This document shows, piece after piece, positions 2,825 to 9,609 of a stretch of DNA of 12,243 nt (its first letter is position 1; each line of letters opens with the position of its first letter). A program made the position numbers and the translations under genes. Below the pieces are notes generated by a model, which did no database searches, was not told where the DNA came from, and saw only the letters and a list, made by a program, of their open reading frames with translations. The stretch spans positions 1 to 12,243 of the forward strand of contig JAEUJQ010000037.1 in NCBI GenBank assembly GCA_016793095.1, in the 5' to 3' direction. Origin of the DNA: Myxococcaceae bacterium (GTDB lineage Bacteria; Myxococcota; Myxococcia; Myxococcales; Myxococcaceae).

Positions 2825-3019
2825 GTGGAGCGCGACATGGAAATGTCCGTTCCGCGGAGGCTGCATTGCCTGCGCCCCGCTGCAGGTCGGAAGACCGGGG
2901 CGTTCCCGCCGGCGCGACTGCAGTTTGTGCGTGGGCCTCCGTCGAGCGCACGAACTGCGCAAGGCCGCCACGCCTTCTCTCGGGCGACTGCTGGCGCACG
3001 AAGTGCAACCCTCCTCGCT

Positions 3020-3715
3020 ATGCGCGCGCTCCGTGTCCTCCCCATCCTCTTCCTGCTCGGCTGTCCCTCGGAGTCAGTGGACGGGCTGATCAAGGAACAG
3101 CGGGCCGCCGTCGAGGCGACCTTCGACGCGATTCGACGGATTCAGCTGCCCCAGACGACCCACGAGGCGCCCGCGGTGCCGCTCGTGCTCCAGACGTCCG
3201 CGAAGGACGGTGTGAACGCGGCCTTCATCTACAGCGAAGACCTCGCGAAGCCCGGCGGCGCGAAGGACGTTCCGCTGAGGACGATGGACTCGTTGACCCT
3301 GGTTCAGTGCGGCTCGCTGCTCGACACCGGGAAGCTCTCCGCGGGAGGTCCGCAGATGCGGCTGACGCAGACCCCGCTCACGCCCACCGTCGCCAGGGCC
3401 TACCTCTCGGCGTGCGCGCGGCTGCGCTACGCGCTCGTCATTCAGGGCACCGCGTTCAAGGCGCCGCAGGTCACCTCCGAGCAGAAGTTCGAGCCGGGGT
3501 TCTTCCGCGCGGACGTGGTGGCGATCGATCTCACCAGCGGGAAGTCGGTGGGAGCGTTCCAGATCGACGCGGCGAACAAGCCCGACGTCAGCGTCATCGC
3601 CGGCGAGGACCGGGGGCAACGGCTGCTGCGCGATCTCGAGGGCTCCATCTACAGCGCGCTGCGTGACGGGCTTCGCACGGCGTTTCCGGGCTCGGTGCCT
3701 CCGCCGGCGTTCTGA
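3020..3715 (+). CDS. Hypothetical lipoprotein of 231 aa. It has a signal peptide with an L-L-G-C lipobox (MRALRVLPILFLLGC).
   Basis: ORF 2825..3715. The internal ATG at 3020 gives a classic lipoprotein signal. Amino-acid composition is protein-like (K, F, I, Y, Q present), whereas the overlapping 2671..3666 frame is R/A/G-rich. I recognise no functional domain. Confidence 0.65.
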   Translation: MRALRVLPILFLLGCPSESVDGLIKEQRAAVEATFDAIRRIQLPQTTHEAPAVPLVLQTSAKDGVNAAFIYSEDLAKPGGAKDVPLRTMDSLTLVQCGSLLDTGKLSAGGPQMRLTQTPLTPTVARAYLSACARLRYALVIQGTAFKAPQVTSEQKFEPGFFRADVVAIDLTSGKSVGAFQIDAANKPDVSVIAGEDRGQRLLRDLEGSIYSALRDGLRTAFPGSVPPPAF

Positions 3716-3828: not shown

Positions 3829-5118
3829 TCAGAGCGAGTCGCGCAGGCGCAGCGCGTCGGGCGCCGCCGAGGTGTCGCCGAACTTCTTCAGCACGACGTC
3901 GGCGACGGCGCGGGCCTGGTCCTTCTTCCCCGTCGCCAGCAGCGCGCGGGCCTTGCGCACCAGCACGCTCGCCTCGAGGTCGCGGGACTCGGCGCCCCGC
4001 GCGAGGTACTTGTCGAGCAGCTTGATGGCCCTCGCCGGCTGCGACAGCTCGTCCTGCAGCACCGACGCCGCCATCAGCGTCGCCCGGTTCGCCTCGACGC
4101 CCTTGCCTGCGGAGGCCTTGAGGTAGCTCTCGACGGCGCCCTTCTTGTCTCCCGTGCGCCGCTGACAGTCAGCCAGCGTCATCCGCGCCGGCACGTCGTC
4201 GGGCGCCTGACCGAGCGACTTCTTCACCTCGACCATCACCAGCCCACATTCGCCTCGCGACGCGCGGGTACGCCACTCGGCCAGCTTCGCCGCCGGAGCC
4301 CCCTTCTTCTTCGGGCTCGCCGGCTCGTCCTTCACGGCGGGCTCGGGCTCCTCGACCGGCTGCACCTCGACGACCGGCTCGGGCTGTGGCGGCACGGGGG
4401 GAACGACCGCGGGCTTCTCGTTCAGCTCGTCGAACACGCCCGCGCTCTCGACCTTGCTGAGCGCGCCGACGCCGCCCTTCACCGTCAGCAGCTGGTTCGC
4501 CGTCACCCGCGAGGTCTGCTGGCCGTACGTCACCTCGACAGTGCCGCGCTGCACCTCGACCGACAGCTCGTCCTCGAGGGCGCGCACGCGGAAGATGGTG
4601 CCCACCACGTGCACGCGGCCGAGCGGGGTCTCGACGTCGAAGCTGCGCTTGCCGCGTGATGGATCGACGTGCGCCGCCACCGAGCCCTTCGACAACACCA
4701 GCCGCGTCGCCTTGTTGCTGGCGGCGGCGATCTCCACCCGCGAGTCCGGTCCCACGCCGACCGTGTCGTCACCGAGCGAGAAGATGGTGCGCCCATCGGC
4801 CGCCGTCTCGGTCACCGAGCCCGTCGTCGTCACCGCCGTCGCGACCACCGGCTTCGCCGTCCACGCCACCTCGGGCTCGCCGCGCAGCAGGACGAAGGCC
4901 AGCACGCCCGCCACCACCACCGCGAGCGCCCCGGCCGGCGCCAACACACGCAGCCACGACGGCGCCTGGGCCTCGGCCTCTTCGGCGCGCTGGAGCAGTC
5001 GCGCCACGTCGTTCGGTCCCGGCGGCTGGGCGAAGGGCGCGCGCGCGAGCTTCAGCTCACTCGAGAACTTGTCCCACGCCGGGTCGGTGGCGGGCGTCTG
5101 GGGAGCGTCGGCGCTCAT
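3829..5118 (-). CDS. Transmembrane anti-sigma factor. A short cytoplasmic N-terminus is followed by one TM helix (LAPAGALAVVVAGVLAFVLL), a periplasmic FecR domain, a proline-rich linker and a C-terminal TPR-like helical domain.
   Basis: The FecR-like segment is 'RLVLSKGSVAAHVDPSRGKRSFDVETPLGRVHVVGTIFRVRALEDELSVEVQRGTVEV'. The linker is 'PAVVPPVPPQPEPVVEVQPVEEPEPAVKDEP'. Its ATG at 5118 overlaps the sigma-factor stop (ATGA) on the minus strand. Confidence 0.75.
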   Translation of the reverse strand: MSADAPQTPATDPAWDKFSSELKLARAPFAQPPGPNDVARLLQRAEEAEAQAPSWLRVLAPAGALAVVVAGVLAFVLLRGEPEVAWTAKPVVATAVTTTGSVTETAADGRTIFSLGDDTVGVGPDSRVEIAAASNKATRLVLSKGSVAAHVDPSRGKRSFDVETPLGRVHVVGTIFRVRALEDELSVEVQRGTVEVTYGQQTSRVTANQLLTVKGGVGALSKVESAGVFDELNEKPAVVPPVPPQPEPVVEVQPVEEPEPAVKDEPASPKKKGAPAAKLAEWRTRASRGECGLVMVEVKKSLGQAPDDVPARMTLADCQRRTGDKKGAVESYLKASAGKGVEANRATLMAASVLQDELSQPARAIKLLDKYLARGAESRDLEASVLVRKARALLATGKKDQARAVADVVLKKFGDTSAAPDALRLRDSL

Positions 5119-5693
5119 TCGGCACCTCCACTCTCGCCAAGCTCTTTGATCTTCTGCCGCGCCCGGTGGAGCCGCGTGAAGACGGTGTTGGGGCTCACGC
5201 CGAGCGACGCGGCGATCTCCTCGGCCGTCCACCCCTCGACGACGTTCAGGACCACCACCGTGCGCCACTCCTCGGGCAGCTTCGCGAGCAACCGCTCGGC
5301 GTCGCGACCCGCATCGACGCGGAGCTGCGGCGTGGTGGTTCGCTCTTCCTTCGAGACGTGGCGGTCGATCAGCTTGCCGCGAACCCACTCCACCACGCCC
5401 GACTTCTTCCCCTTCTTCGCTGCGATGCCGACCAGGAACGACTTCACCGACACGCCGGGGCGCAGCCGGTCCGCCACCTTCGCGAACGTGAGGAACACCT
5501 CCTGACAGAGGTCGTCGAGCTCGCTGTCTCGTACCTGATGTCGAAGGACGTTCATCACCACTCCCCTGTGACGGGTGTAGAGAGGACCGAGCGCTTTCAG
5601 GTCGCCAGCCACCAGCCGCCTGACACACGCGTCGTCGTCTTCACCCGCCGTCAATTCATCTGGAATCCCGTGACGGCTCAAAGTCCTTCCCAT
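5115..5693 (-). CDS. ECF (sigma-70 family group IV) RNA polymerase sigma factor.
   Basis: Region 2: 'DDLCQEVFLTFAKVADRLRP'. Region 4.2 HTH: 'WTAEEIAASLGVSPNTVFTRLHRARQKIKE'. The start is ATG at 5693. The gene is translationally coupled to the downstream anti-sigma. Confidence 0.85.
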   Translation of the reverse strand: MGRTLSRHGIPDELTAGEDDDACVRRLVAGDLKALGPLYTRHRGVVMNVLRHQVRDSELDDLCQEVFLTFAKVADRLRPGVSVKSFLVGIAAKKGKKSGVVEWVRGKLIDRHVSKEERTTTPQLRVDAGRDAERLLAKLPEEWRTVVVLNVVEGWTAEEIAASLGVSPNTVFTRLHRARQKIKELGESGGAE

Positions 5694-6763
5694 GCGAGAC
5701 CGATGCCGGCGTGCAGCGAGAGCGCAGGCTGCCGCCAGACGACATGATCGCCAGGCAGTTCAACGAGTTGGGCGCGGCCGAGGCGGGCGAGGGCCTGGAG
5801 GCGGAACACGATGGAAAAGGCCTGAGTACCTGCACTTACATCGACGCCGAGGAGTCCAGCCCCCGTGAGTGTGGTGATCTGTCCGGGCACCGACTGGCGA
5901 GAGCTGGTCCAGGTGAGTTCCGGGCCGAGGCCGACGCGTGGCCAGAAGGCGAAGTCGCCCAGTGTGTAGCTTCGGGTCCCCACTGCGAGGACGGGAAGCG
6001 ACACCGAAGAGACGGCGGCAGACTCGAGCGGCACAGCGCGGTGGCCGGTGGCAGACACGTCGATGCCAAAGCCGAGGCGGTGGTTCAGCTTGAAGAGCGC
6101 GCTGAGGGCGCCGCCATAGCGGGTCGCTCCCCCGAGGTGGTCGATCACGCCCGAGTCGACGAGCCCGAAGGCCATCAGCCGCAAGCGCTTCGGGTCCGGT
6201 GGGCGGGCAGGCGCGGGTGGCGCGATCGGCGTGTCGGCGATGGCCAGCGGCGCGACGTCGGGGGCGTACGACATGGTCGCGCGCGTCTGCTTCACCACGG
6301 CTCGCAGCTGGGGCGGAACGTTGGCGGGCGCCTCGTAGAGAAAGGCCGTGCCCAGCAGCTCGCGCATCATCAACGCCAGCGCGCTCTCGTTGCGGCTCTT
6401 GCGGTCGAACTCGAGCGTGCGCACCAGGGTGCGGCCAGTGCCCTGGGCGACGAGGTGCAGCATGAGCTGTCCCGGCAACGGCTCCGAGAGCCACACCACG
6501 GCCGCAGCGTCGTTGGCCTTCGCGACGGGCAGGACCGCGGCGAGCTGATCGGCCAGCGGCTTTCGCGGGAAGTCGGGCACCGCGATGGGCGTGTTGAGCA
6601 CGATGAACGAGTCGAGGAGCAGGGTGAGCTCTTCATGCAGGCGCGCCTGCGTCTTCACGAACGCCGGCGGCCCGTCGGTGCGGATCATGACGATGAGCGG
6701 CGGGGGTGGCCCGATGGACACCCTGGGCGCGGCCAGCACCAGCGTGAGCAGAAGCGCGGTCAT
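5678..6763 (-). CDS. Exported hypothetical protein of 361 aa. It has a signal peptide (MTALLLTLVLAAP) and a C-terminal ~170 aa of alternating hydrophobic residues that suggest an outer-membrane beta-barrel. It is the first gene of the ECF sigma operon.
   Basis: ORF 5678..6853, which begins with GTG. The internal ATG at 6763 gives a clean signal peptide. The 3' end overlaps the sigma start by 16 nt. I recognise no named domain, and the beta-barrel call rests on the residue pattern only. Confidence 0.55.
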   Translation of the reverse strand: MTALLLTLVLAAPRVSIGPPPPLIVMIRTDGPPAFVKTQARLHEELTLLLDSFIVLNTPIAVPDFPRKPLADQLAAVLPVAKANDAAAVVWLSEPLPGQLMLHLVAQGTGRTLVRTLEFDRKSRNESALALMMRELLGTAFLYEAPANVPPQLRAVVKQTRATMSYAPDVAPLAIADTPIAPPAPARPPDPKRLRLMAFGLVDSGVIDHLGGATRYGGALSALFKLNHRLGFGIDVSATGHRAVPLESAAVSSVSLPVLAVGTRSYTLGDFAFWPRVGLGPELTWTSSRQSVPGQITTLTGAGLLGVDVSAGTQAFSIVFRLQALARLGRAQLVELPGDHVVWRQPALSLHAGIGLAWEGL

Positions 6764-6870
6764 CGACAGCGCTGCAGTGTGCCTGTCACGTCGAGCTTTC
6801 TCACGCTCAAAGCGCGAGGGCAGGCGCTGCTGGTTCCCTGGCGTTCGCGACACCGCTATGCAACCGGCGC

Positions 6871-8109
6871 ATGTCGCCCTCGCCGCCCGCCGGCCTGCTG
6901 ACGCTGCAGCTCAGGCCAGGCCACCCTGACCTGCTCGACCTGCCCTGGCACCTGCCCCTGAGCGCGTGGGAGGGCGCGTGCCCCCGCTGGGTGGAGATTC
7001 CGCGTGGGCTCTCGCGGCACGAGGTCCTCTTCGTCAGCTACGGCGAGGTCGTCTACGCGCTCAAGGAGCTGCCGGGGTCGGTCGCCGAGCGTGAGTACGC
7101 CGCGCTGCGCGAGCTCGAGGCGCGGGCGCTGCCGGCCGTCACGCCCGTTGGCCTCGCCCACACGCGGCCCGAGGGCACGGGCGAAGAACGTGGGGTGCTG
7201 GTGACGCAGTACCTCCAGGGGTCGCTCCCCTACCGGACGCTCTTCATGCAGCCGGGTCTCGAGCGCTACCGGGCGCGCCTCGTCGACGCCCTCGCGGTGC
7301 TGCTGGTGCGCCTGCACCTGGGCGGCTGCTTCTGGGGCGACTGCTCGCTGTCCAACAGCCTGTTCCGCCGCGACGCAGGCGAGCTGCAGGCCTACCTGGT
7401 GGACGCCGAGACGTCCGAGCTGCACCCGACGCTGTCGGACGGGCAGCGGCGCTTCGACCTGGACCTGATGGAGGAGAACGTGGCGGGCGGGCTGGTGGAC
7501 CTGATCGCCGCGGGAGCCGCCAGCGCTGCCGCGCTCGACTGGCGCGAGACGAGCGCCAGCGTGCGTCGCCGCTATGAGCAGCTCTGGGCGGAGATCACCC
7601 GCGAGGAGCTGGTCGGAGCCGGTGACTCGTTCCTCGTGCAGGAGCGCATTCGCAAGCTGAACGCCCTGGGCTTCAGCGTCGGGGAGGTCGAGCTGGTCGC
7701 CACCGGTGACGGCGCCCACCTGCGCATGCGCACCATCGTGACCGACCGCAACCACCACCGGCACCTGCTGCACAACCTCACCGGCCTGGTCGCCGAGGAG
7801 CACCAGGCGCAGCTCCTGCTCAACGACGTGCGCGAGTGGAAGGTGGCCGCCACCCGCGAGCTGAACCGCAGCCTCCCGCTGTCCGTCGCCGCGCACCGCT
7901 GGCTCAACGAGCGCTTCCTCAGCGTGACGCAGTCGATGCAGGGCGCCGGCGCGCCGGAGGACCTCTGCGAGCTCTTCTGCCAGGTGCTCGAGCACAAGTG
8001 GCTCATGTCCGAGCGCGAGAAAGAGGACGTCGGCTTCAAGCGCGCCGTGGCGGACTACCGCGCGCTGCGCGGGCTCGCGGAGCCGGTCGAGCCCGCGCCA
8101 TCTGAGTGA
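6871..8109 (+). CDS. Atypical protein-kinase-like fold protein (412 aa). A Kdo-kinase-like / RIO-like architecture is suggested. I recall this as DUF4032 but cannot verify it.
   Basis: ATG at 6871. Kinase-like landmarks: 'VVYALKEL' (beta3 Lys-like), 'EYAALRELE' (alphaC Glu-like), 'LHLGGCFWGDCSLSNSLF' (HxD...N catalytic-loop-like, residues ~149-162) and 'AYLVDAETSE' (DFG-like D178). Confidence 0.6.
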   Translation: MSPSPPAGLLTLQLRPGHPDLLDLPWHLPLSAWEGACPRWVEIPRGLSRHEVLFVSYGEVVYALKELPGSVAEREYAALRELEARALPAVTPVGLAHTRPEGTGEERGVLVTQYLQGSLPYRTLFMQPGLERYRARLVDALAVLLVRLHLGGCFWGDCSLSNSLFRRDAGELQAYLVDAETSELHPTLSDGQRRFDLDLMEENVAGGLVDLIAAGAASAAALDWRETSASVRRRYEQLWAEITREELVGAGDSFLVQERIRKLNALGFSVGEVELVATGDGAHLRMRTIVTDRNHHRHLLHNLTGLVAEEHQAQLLLNDVREWKVAATRELNRSLPLSVAAHRWLNERFLSVTQSMQGAGAPEDLCELFCQVLEHKWLMSEREKEDVGFKRAVADYRALRGLAEPVEPAPSE

Positions 8110-9488
8110 CGACCCGAGGCCACGCGCTCCCGACGTCGGCGGCGCATGGCACCGAAGGCCAGCGCCAGTCCGGGCACCGCCCCCGCGTCCGAGCCGCACC
8201 CGCACCCGAGGCGCTGGATGGTGACTCCGGGGCCACTGGGGAACGGCGACGAGCTGGGCGGCACCTCGAGCACTGACGACTTGCCCGGCAGCCCGGCGCC
8301 CGCGCCGTAGTCGCCCGCCGGCACCCGGCCCGCGAGACCGCCGAGCACGGACATGGGGCACTCGGCCACGCGACCTGCACGCAGCGACACGTGGCCGCCA
8401 CCACCTCCACCGCCGGGCCCGTTGTCGGTGGCCGCACCACCAGCGCCGCCATTCGCGAACAGGGCACACCGCGCGGCCTCGACGACCTCGACGACGACGG
8501 AGCCGCCCGCGCCCGCCCCACCACCTCCGCCAAACCGGGAGTCGGTCGCCGGCCCTTCCTGGCCATCAGCCACCACGAGCCCCGCGCCTTCGAGGGTCCG
8601 CGCTCGAAGGAAGACGCCGCCGCCGCCGCGCCCACCACCGCGCCCTCGCCCGAAGGTGCCGTTGGTCGCCCCGCCGCCGCCCCCGAAGAGCAGCCCCGCC
8701 CACGTGAGCGCCGCGGCGCCGAACCCACCGACGTCGCGCTTCCCGTCACCGCTGAACCCGCCCTGCCCGCCTTCGCCGAGTCCGGCGCCGCCGCCGCCGC
8801 CCGAGTACGCGCACGCCCCGCCGCCGCCGCCCGAGTCGTTGTTGCGCCGGCCGGTGAAGGTGGTGCCGAACCCTCCGACGAGCGCGCCCTCGCCCCGCTC
8901 CGCGCCTCGGGGACCGGCCTCGTCCTCGCCCAGGCAGCCGAGCTCGGCCTGGCCAATCTCGCGGGGGGCGCCGCCGCGGAACCCGGCGCCGTTCGCCGAC
9001 AACGTTCCGTCGTTGCGCACCGTCCCGTTCGCCAGCAACGCGAGCACGCCGCCGCTGGCGCCGTTCCAGGCTGGCGCGACCAGCGACGTCCCCGAGTGGA
9101 CGATGACGTCGGTGAACTGGGGCACCAGCACCGCCTGACTCTCTCCCTGTCGCCACGGCCGGTTGAGCGGTGTCGCGAGCTCGAGCTTCGGGCCGACGAC
9201 GCGCTCGACGAAGTGCAGCGAGTACTCGCCGACACGGTAGCGCTCCCCGTCCGAGCGCCACTGGCTCTGCAGCAACAGCACCACCGCGCCGCTCGAGAAC
9301 GGCGTGGAGTCTGCGACGAGAACGAACGGGTCTCCGGCGGCTGCGTCGGCGGCCAGGGCAGTGGCCGCGTTGATGACGCGACTCAGCGTCGTCACCTCGA
9401 GCACGCCGTCACGCCCATCGCCGAGCTGCTGCACCTGACCCAGCACTGGCCCCGACAGGCAGAGCAACGCGAAGAGGACGCCACGCAC
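8055..9488 (-). CDS. Glycine-rich secreted or cell-surface protein with a C-terminal MYXO-CTERM-like sorting signal (GCGCG...GLALAFGAMRRRRR). The N-terminal domain of ~200 aa is of unknown function. The central region carries runs of GGGGG.
   Basis: ORF 8055..9611, which begins with TTG inside the neighbouring gene's SD. I prefer GTG at 9488, which gives the signal peptide 'RGVLFALLCLSGPVLGQ'. The C-terminus has two Cys, a hydrophobic stretch and five Arg, matching the Myxococcales-type C-terminal sorting domain. The start assignment is uncertain. Confidence 0.6.
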   Translation of the reverse strand: MRGVLFALLCLSGPVLGQVQQLGDGRDGVLEVTTLSRVINAATALAADAAAGDPFVLVADSTPFSSGAVVLLLQSQWRSDGERYRVGEYSLHFVERVVGPKLELATPLNRPWRQGESQAVLVPQFTDVIVHSGTSLVAPAWNGASGGVLALLANGTVRNDGTLSANGAGFRGGAPREIGQAELGCLGEDEAGPRGAERGEGALVGGFGTTFTGRRNNDSGGGGGACAYSGGGGGAGLGEGGQGGFSGDGKRDVGGFGAAALTWAGLLFGGGGGATNGTFGRGRGGGRGGGGVFLRARTLEGAGLVVADGQEGPATDSRFGGGGGAGAGGSVVVEVVEAARCALFANGGAGGAATDNGPGGGGGGGHVSLRAGRVAECPMSVLGGLAGRVPAGDYGAGAGLPGKSSVLEVPPSSSPFPSGPGVTIQRLGCGCGSDAGAVPGLALAFGAMRRRRRERVASGRHSDGAGSTGSASPRSAR

Positions 9489-9609
9489 GCCGCGCAGTGT
9501 GCCTGAAAACGCGGAGTTCGACGGCGAAACCGACGGCCCCGCACACCCGCCGAGACTTTTTCCTATTCTGCGGGTTGCGGTGTCTGTCCACTCAGCCGCC
9601 GCTCGTCGC

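Follow-up and report, generated by a model that had tools for sequence, protein, structure and literature searches.

Cell-surface signalling to extracytoplasmic function (ECF) sigma factors is understood, to our knowledge, almost only for TonB-dependent transducers. The Dma proteins have shown that small barrels can likewise be wired to anti-sigma factors: in Dma1 of Bacteroides an 8-stranded barrel is joined by a disordered linker to the anti-sigma factor within one polypeptide, and the system is TonB-independent (PMC10927553). Moreover, the classification of ECF sigma factors has delineated a myxobacterial group, ECF267, whose FecR+TPR (tetratricopeptide repeat) anti-sigma factors have neither an outer-membrane partner nor a known signal. 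The group comprises 28 proteins of Sorangium and Chondromyces (Casas-Pastor et al. 2021, ECF classification 2.0; PMC7826278 and bioRxiv supplement); the anti-sigma factor, with one transmembrane (TM) helix, is encoded at +1, and no FecA-like partner or TonB-dependent receptor occurs (PMC7826278). The sigma factors have a C-terminus rich in G and D/E (PMC7826278, supplement), one to three protein kinases are encoded nearby at positions that are not conserved, and the description names no conserved gene at -1 (PMC7826278). ECF267 shares a clade with ECF02/RpoE, a group concerned with envelope stress, and is distant from that of FecI (PMC7826278). The present work deals with a three-gene operon coding for an exported protein (gene A), an ECF sigma factor and a FecR-TPR anti-sigma factor, located in a 12,243-nt stretch of DNA from a Myxococcaceae bacterium (contig JAEUJQ010000037.1), the whole of which is referred to below as the window.

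The original prediction regarded this operon as a possible distinct envelope-to-sigma relay. What stands of that claim is the conserved barrel partner and the lack of a TonB-dependent transducer; the architecture of the sigma/anti-sigma pair itself is known already, and the barrel partner is the sole new part. Our preferred reading, which is held tentatively and given a little less than an even chance, is that A and the anti-sigma factor form a periplasm-spanning pair controlling the sigma factor, the three genes together constituting a three-component envelope-to-transcription module of Myxococcota.

Co-conservation and architecture of the three genes

The three genes follow one another in the same direction on the minus strand (Table 1), in the anticipated order of exported barrel-like protein, ECF sigma factor and FecR-domain anti-sigma factor. 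To place them in context, 42 related loci were gathered from exact-protein look-ups, a genome collection and a metagenome collection, a metagenome scan with a narrower alignment giving 14 loci, and were annotated with profile hidden Markov models (HMMs) for A, the sigma factor, the anti-sigma factor and the upstream neighbour. Exact look-ups of the window's own proteins gave no record. The synteny is strict: the sigma gene comes next after gene A at all 40 places with DNA beyond A, and the FecR/TPR anti-sigma gene comes next after the sigma gene in 37/37 places with enough DNA, while three contigs stop within ~240 nt of gene A. The module is found in Myxococcaceae/Archangiaceae, in a metagenome-assembled genome (MAG) of Polyangiales (L023) and in unclassified Myxococcota, and its order is kept even where the protein is about as little as ~20% identical to that of the window (L026, L039-L042), within unrelated flanking genes that vary between clades. 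The co-conservation expected of the three genes was therefore recovered. The barrel and the anti-sigma factor are encoded by separate genes in all loci, and neither a TonB-dependent receptor nor a Plug or STN domain was detected among the window open reading frames (ORFs) scanned or among the gene calls of the relatives' loci, which agrees with the earlier proposal that the outer-membrane partner is not a classical TonB-dependent transducer.

In one locus (L026, 2597-9162; also L027) two paralogous modules are adjacent and divergently arranged, each with its own A-like gene, one having a FecR/TPR and the other a FecR+PEGA+TPR anti-sigma factor. Each of the L026 modules is then followed by an unrelated protein of 560-620 aa without Pfam hits; no conserved fourth gene was found downstream of the module in the distant loci.

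The genes are also translationally coupled. The predicted ATGA overlap between the sigma stop and the anti-sigma start is present in the window and is kept as NTGA in 12 of the 14 loci compared, the overlap being 8 nt in the remaining two. The 16-nt overlap proposed between A and the sigma gene holds if the latter starts at ATG 5693, but not with the alternative in-frame starts TTG 5681, which gives a 4-nt overlap (TTGA), and TTG 5654, which gives a protein of 179 aa and no overlap. Both ATG 5693 and TTG 5681 arise from codons of the invariant C-terminus of gene A (...AWEGL*). In most of 20 Myxococcaceae/Archangiaceae-type junctions an in-frame sigma start lies 23-29 nt past the stop codon of A (in the window, TTG 5654); it is the sole candidate in the L003 junction, and L007 is an exception, with candidates at -61, -4 and +11 and none at 23-29 nt. 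Throughout the window's clade, A and the sigma gene overlap or sit at most ~30 nt apart.

The product of gene A has no match in Pfam or NCBIfam (E<=0.1), nor among PDB sequences. Its 39 close relatives, all of ~360 aa, come from Myxococcota MAGs or metagenomes, and a profile search of 1.84 billion representatives returned 223 cluster representatives, mostly of 340-400 aa with full-length matches; the named relatives are all "hypothetical protein" from Myxococcota or "Deltaproteobacteria" MAGs. The small size foreseen for the first protein (~360 aa) is thus that of the window copy (361 aa) and of its homologues alike. In the AlphaFold2 model built on a 32-sequence alignment, the C-terminal part (residues 194-360) is a closed antiparallel 8-strand outer-membrane barrel with a predicted local distance difference test (pLDDT) score >90, most of its strands having the alternating hydrophobic (dyad) pattern of membrane barrels, so the beta-barrel C-terminus suspected earlier is what the model returns. 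The ~190-aa periplasmic N-domain of the original prediction is periplasmic also in our prediction, but it really consists of a folded domain of ~120 aa (residues 23-142; beta-alpha-beta-alpha-beta-beta-beta-alpha, pLDDT ~85) and a disordered Pro/Ala-rich linker of ~50 aa.

In the OmpA-family topology an 8-stranded barrel has its N- and C-terminal ends on the periplasmic side and, by that precedent, the N-domain and its tether are placed in the periplasm. The N-domain is also the better conserved part of the protein, the majority-residue fraction being 0.82 as against 0.53 for the barrel, as is expected of a domain with a conserved protein partner for which the barrel serves as anchor. It carries the signature motifs GTGRTLVR and RELLGTAFL. 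The C-terminus ...GIGLAWEGL, the last residue of which is F in relatives, is conserved as well, W-E-G-(L/F) being invariant or nearly so.

The anti-sigma factor matches FecR (PF04773, 3.3e-12, residues 104-195) and several TPR families (residues 297-418). The additional C-terminal TPR domain that had been noted behind a Pro-rich linker is present in the AlphaFold2 model, and that linker, rich in Pro, Glu and Val, is reminiscent of the TonB spacer. Neither a FecR_C/DUF4974 nor a FecR_N-type domain was found in the protein (Pfam, E<=0.1), the FecR domain being followed instead by the disordered Pro/Glu spacer and the TPR. The anti-sigma factors of deeper clades have an N-terminal zf-HC2 motif (HxxxCxxC), which indicates that this is a genuine anti-sigma family. 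In the window's clade ~25 N-terminal residues including this motif are missing, and in-frame stops just upstream in relatives argue that the truncation is not a start-codon artefact. A 599-aa ORF (3829-5628) was rejected as an alternative gene call: it runs across the sigma gene in a different frame, and in relatives the reading frame is closed by stop codons immediately before the start of the anti-sigma gene. The window has a G+C content of ~70%, which accounts for long spurious ORFs on both strands. As a separate observation, cysteines of the TPR domain (RGEC, DCxRR) are kept in nearly all members of the family, and the two may form a periplasmic disulfide.

The sigma factor matches Sigma70_r2 (1.2e-8), Sigma70_r4_2 (7.9e-17) and TIGR02937 (1e-18); against NCBIfam no equivalog cut-off was attained, the matches being generic and sub-threshold. 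The family-wide motif DLCQEVFL...GIAxKKxxK is followed by a short G/E/D-rich C-terminus, ...KELGESGGAE in the window and ...ELTEGEPS, ...ELESEDEP and similar in relatives. Region 2.3-2.4 of the family reads GIA(A/V)(K/R)K(G/A)(K/R)K (GIAAKKGKK in the window) in place of the usual IAxNxxxDxxR, and the Pfam r2 match ends ahead of this atypical region 2.4, which may be related to the unusual upstream motif described below.

The pair fits the bioinformatically defined group ECF267, the likeness being one of description and not of a group HMM score: the FecR+TPR anti-sigma at +1 with one TM helix, a context lacking any FecA-like/TonB-dependent receptor and the G/D/E-rich C-terminus of the window sigma factor and its relatives all agree. 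ECF267 was defined on Sorangium and Chondromyces; the window belongs to a Myxococcaceae MAG, and the Polyangiales MAG mentioned above carries the module too. By description, the sigma factor does not fall in a group with a well-known unrelated partner; the closest described group has no FecA-like partner. Since the ECF267 description contains no conserved gene at -1, the barrel partner is no part of what has been described.

The upstream motif and the neighbouring genes

When the regions upstream of gene A in 12 loci, which otherwise diverge, are aligned, the only invariant columns are those of TTTG-N2-CGTG-N19-GCACACT, an element that occurs upstream of gene A once per locus and always at the same position. 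Its 8-mer GGCACACT (6776-6783, minus strand) ends 12 nt ahead of the gene A ATG in the window. The same 8-mer stands 7-8 nt before the GTG start of a gene for an AgmC_N-like protein in 10 loci of a close clade, and no further intergenic occurrence was seen in these loci. Two copies are present in the window against 0.46 expected, a number attained by 16 of 200 shuffles; the evidence is therefore the positional conservation and not the count. Among 20 GGCACACT sites, TT at -27/-26 is the sole additional enrichment. A candidate -35 element, GGGAAC at 6833-6838, was rejected as not conserved in relatives, and the sigma-70 promoter and terminator scan gave no signal exceeding chance.

Judged by its position, GGCACACT would be a dedicated promoter element, with the operon's own sigma factor as the obvious candidate for its recognition, and its distance to the start codons would imply nearly leaderless mRNAs. 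Its occurrence before both genes implies, as far as sequence can tell, the co-regulation of gene A and the AgmC_N-like gene. The motif also bears on gene calls. An extension of gene A to GTG 6853 (391 aa), prompted by a conserved-looking in-frame "RRHT" before ATG 6763, was rejected because the conserved stretch is identical nucleotide by nucleotide (GGCACACT) and is found again ahead of a different gene, which marks it as a DNA motif; the homologues (350-375 aa) start at the same place as ATG 6763. Likewise, the position of the motif fixes the start of the AgmC_N-like gene at GTG 9488, giving a good signal peptide.

The AgmC_N-like Gly-rich protein, with the N-terminus MRGVLFALLCLSGPVLG, scores 256 bits against NCBIfam gliding_AgmC_N, under the 275-bit cut-off, and 18.3 bits against TIGR03382 (MYXO-CTERM; cut-off 15.85) in its tail (GCGC...RRRRR). 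Homologues with 42-71% identity are encoded directly upstream of A, on the same strand and sometimes with a 4-nt overlap, in most Myxococcaceae/Archangiaceae relatives. The gene is absent from deeper clades that keep the module (L004, L022, L023, L026, L034, L036, L039-L042), which makes it a clade-specific addition and no core part of the module; it is probably a regulon member. The homologues stop at the Arg run, the window copy being 25 codons longer and sharing 55 nt with the convergent DUF4032 gene at the 3' end of the latter.

This DUF4032 gene, which also has a Kdo/WaaP-like kinase fold, separates the AgmC_N-like gene from A, and no relative has it at this spot. A different opposite-strand gene occupies the same place in L009-type loci, so that the junction seems to tolerate insertions. 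At the other side of the operon, between it and an element of the insertion sequence (IS) 21 family, an ORF (2825-3715, plus strand) converges on the operon; read from an internal Met, its N-terminus resembles that of a lipoprotein (MRALRVLPILFLLGC), and no family was matched.

Table 1. Coordinates of the operon, its predicted domains and the surrounding features of the window
Feature	Residues	Nucleotides	Strand	Remarks
Gene A		6763-5678	minus	361 aa, predicted exported two-domain outer-membrane protein
Gene A, signal peptide	1-18	6763-6710	minus	
Gene A, TolB-N-like alpha/beta domain	19-142	6709-6338	minus	
Gene A, Pro/Ala-rich disordered linker	143-193	6337-6185	minus	
Gene A, 8-stranded beta-barrel	194-361	6184-5681	minus	
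Gene A, stop codon		5680-5678	minus	
ECF sigma factor		5693-5115	minus	192 aa counted from ATG 5693
Anti-sigma factor		5118-3829	minus	429 aa, single-pass
Anti-sigma, N-terminal region	1-54	5118-4957	minus	shortened in the window's clade
Anti-sigma, two cytoplasmic helices	13-50			AlphaFold2
Anti-sigma, TM helix	55-78	4956-4885	minus	
Anti-sigma, FecR (PupR-like) beta-domain	88-222	4857-4453	minus	pLDDT ~90
Anti-sigma, Pro/Glu/Val-rich disordered spacer	223-275	4452-4294	minus	
Anti-sigma, TPR domain	276-429	4293-3832	minus	nine helices (276-428), pLDDT >90
Promoter-like element upstream of gene A		6776-6811	minus	TTTG-N2-CGTG-N19-GCACACT, full form GGCACACT
Second GGCACACT copy		9496-9503	minus	7 nt before GTG start 9488 of the AgmC_N-like gene
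AgmC_N-like Gly-rich protein		8055-9488	minus	477 aa, signal peptide, MYXO-CTERM tail
DUF4032 + Kdo/WaaP-like kinase-fold gene		6871-8109	plus	between the AgmC_N-like gene and gene A
IS21-family element		159-2577	plus	IstA-like transposase (rve, Mu-transpos_C_2, HTH), then IstB (PF01695, 4.9e-51)

Proposed mechanism and competing explanations

In the mechanism that we propose, the single-pass anti-sigma factor would hold the ECF sigma factor at the inner membrane, while in its periplasmic part a TonB-like Pro/Glu-rich spacer, behind a FecR/PupR-type beta-domain, would extend the TPR towards the outer membrane. Gene A would supply the outer-membrane end, an OmpA/NspA-type barrel anchoring the TolB-N-like domain on its Pro/Ala-rich tether. 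This domain would dock onto the anti-sigma factor at its TPR (or FecR) domain, and the two proteins would thereby bridge the periplasm. We infer that the signal would run inwards, the contact between A and the anti-sigma factor being altered when the outer membrane or the cell surface changes. The anti-sigma factor would then lose its activity, the most likely route being regulated proteolysis of the kind found in other FecR and RseA-type systems, and the freed sigma factor would transcribe the operon that encodes it and, within the clade of the window, also the adjacent gene for the MYXO-CTERM surface protein. The pairing of A with the anti-sigma factor is favoured because their co-inheritance is strict, order-preserving and paralogue-specific, because the periplasmic domain is more constrained than the barrel and because the tethered TPR replaces the transducer-binding subdomain. 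A more specific version, which may be called a "split Dma", is possible though on balance unlikely: a TonB-independent two-protein bridge running from the TolB-N-like domain of A to the TPR of the anti-sigma factor, both on proline-rich tethers, with a mechanical or proteolytic relay of the state of the outer membrane or cell surface and a near-leaderless output consisting of the module and a myxosortase-anchored surface protein.

Several points weigh against a bridging role of A and against the sigma factor's use of the motif. Were A simply the chief target of a sigma factor that regulates itself, co-transcription would be expected just as much. No common -35 element can be defined across the two sets of GGCACACT promoters beyond the TT at -27/-26, and GGCACACT, which is unlike the usual ECF -10 elements, may be an operator or an element of the 5' untranslated region. 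The gene A family consists throughout of uncharacterised metagenome proteins. The signal peptide of the window copy is atypical, being short and devoid of a charged n-region, whereas those of distant members are canonical and end in AxA. Finally, given the loss of the N-terminal residues, the hold of the anti-sigma factor on the sigma factor is uncertain in the window's clade.

The first of these points leads to the explanation that A is an effector, an OmpA-like outer-membrane protein with a periplasmic domain (for example an envelope tether or scaffold), and that an envelope-stress sigma factor under its own control has the production of A as its main output, the anti-sigma factor sensing alone. 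This would account for the place of A as first gene of the operon, directly behind the promoter-like motif; ECF operons are commonly autoregulated (PMC7826278), ECF267 lies in the clade of the envelope-stress group ECF02/RpoE and TPR domains are able to bind ligands or peptides unaided. We nevertheless consider it rather unlikely, since ECF target genes are rarely found in fixed order and tightly coupled with the sigma and anti-sigma genes at ~20% identity, since each paralogous module keeps its own copy of A, as is typical of cognate interacting partners, and since the most constrained part of the protein is its periplasmic domain and not the membrane part.

A second alternative assigns the recognition to the other end of the protein: the TPR of the anti-sigma factor would recognise the unassembled barrel, for instance the ...AWEG(L/F) beta-signal of A or outer-membrane proteins (OMPs) generally, and A would be a sentinel substrate of the beta-barrel assembly machinery (BAM). 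Precedents exist in DegS/RseA, which senses OMP C-termini, and in BamD, which binds beta-signals. The nearly invariant W-E-G-(L/F) end of A and the clustering of ECF267 near ECF02 are in line with it, but the likeness of the TPR to BamD is generic, many unrelated TPRs outscoring BamD, and both the superior conservation of the folded N-domain and its long tether are left unexplained, so that this alternative appears quite improbable.

The last, by which A and the anti-sigma factor would monitor or assist export and anchoring of the AgmC_N-like protein while the sigma factor tunes its expression, would suit the MYXO-CTERM tail of that protein, the shared GGCACACT and the position of its gene directly upstream of A, sometimes overlapping, in the Myxococcaceae/Archangiaceae clade, but is very improbable, as deeper clades keep A, sigma and anti-sigma without this gene and as an unrelated opposite-strand gene lies between it and A in the window and in L009-type loci.

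Comparison with known systems

With A and the anti-sigma factor read as a periplasm-spanning pair, the module can be set beside the systems already characterised. With FecA-FecR-FecI, and likewise PupB-PupR-PupI, it has in common an anti-sigma factor with a periplasmic FecR domain. The outer-membrane component there is, however, a 22-stranded TonB-dependent transducer, whereas here it is an 8-stranded barrel of OmpA size without Plug or STN, whose periplasmic domain has a TolB-N-like fold instead and whose gene is upstream of, and co-transcribed with, that of the sigma factor. The anti-sigma factor also differs: the FecR_C/STN-binding subdomain is lacking, a Pro-rich spacer and TPR stand in its place, and the ancestral forms have a zf-HC2 domain. 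Going by the description of ECF267, the sigma factor is far from the FecI clade (ECF239-243).

The RpoE-RseA-RseB/DegS system shares with the module an ECF sigma factor, a single-pass anti-sigma factor and a co-transcribed third protein exposed to the periplasm, as well as, probably, the status of the outer membrane as input; ECF267 lies in the ECF02 clade. Homology to RseA, RseB or RseC is lacking, however. Here the gene of the third protein opens the operon and its product is anchored in the outer membrane, while the anti-sigma factor has FecR+TPR as its periplasmic part. In the Rcs system (RcsF-OMP, IgaA) an outer-membrane-associated protein extends through the periplasm as far as a negative regulator in the inner membrane and signals the condition of the outer membrane; the concept is that of the module, but the proteins are unrelated and Rcs has a phosphorelay in place of a sigma factor as its output.

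At the level of single domains, the closed antiparallel 8-strand barrel and the dyad hydrophobic pattern predicted for gene A are those of OmpA/OmpX/NspA-type barrels, although by sequence the protein is outside every Pfam OMP barrel family (no hit at E<=0.1). Its N-domain resembles the N-terminal domain of TolB in fold only, with neither sequence similarity nor a beta-propeller; no Tol-Pal genes are found near the module, and the similarity of the TPR in that direction is generic.

The closest functional precedent, by analogy of architecture, is Dma1, which has in common with the module an 8-stranded outer-membrane barrel, a long disordered periplasmic segment and an anti-sigma factor holding an ECF sigma factor, without TonB. 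Dma1 is one polypeptide, whereas two proteins are involved here, each with a Pro-rich tether and a folded periplasmic part (TolB-N-like in one, FecR+TPR in the other), and both the sigma group (ECF21) and the phylum differ. For ECF267, the strictly co-conserved barrel with its tethered periplasmic domain is a concrete candidate for the partner, and the three genes offer a compact system for the study of TonB-free information transfer across the periplasm. Furthermore, GGCACACT suggests a first regulon member in the MYXO-CTERM surface protein, which is related to the N-terminal part of a protein of gliding motility. If the "split Dma" arrangement were true, it would give ECF267 its outer-membrane partner and would represent a third architecture of cell-surface signalling, beside the TonB-dependent transducers and Dma.

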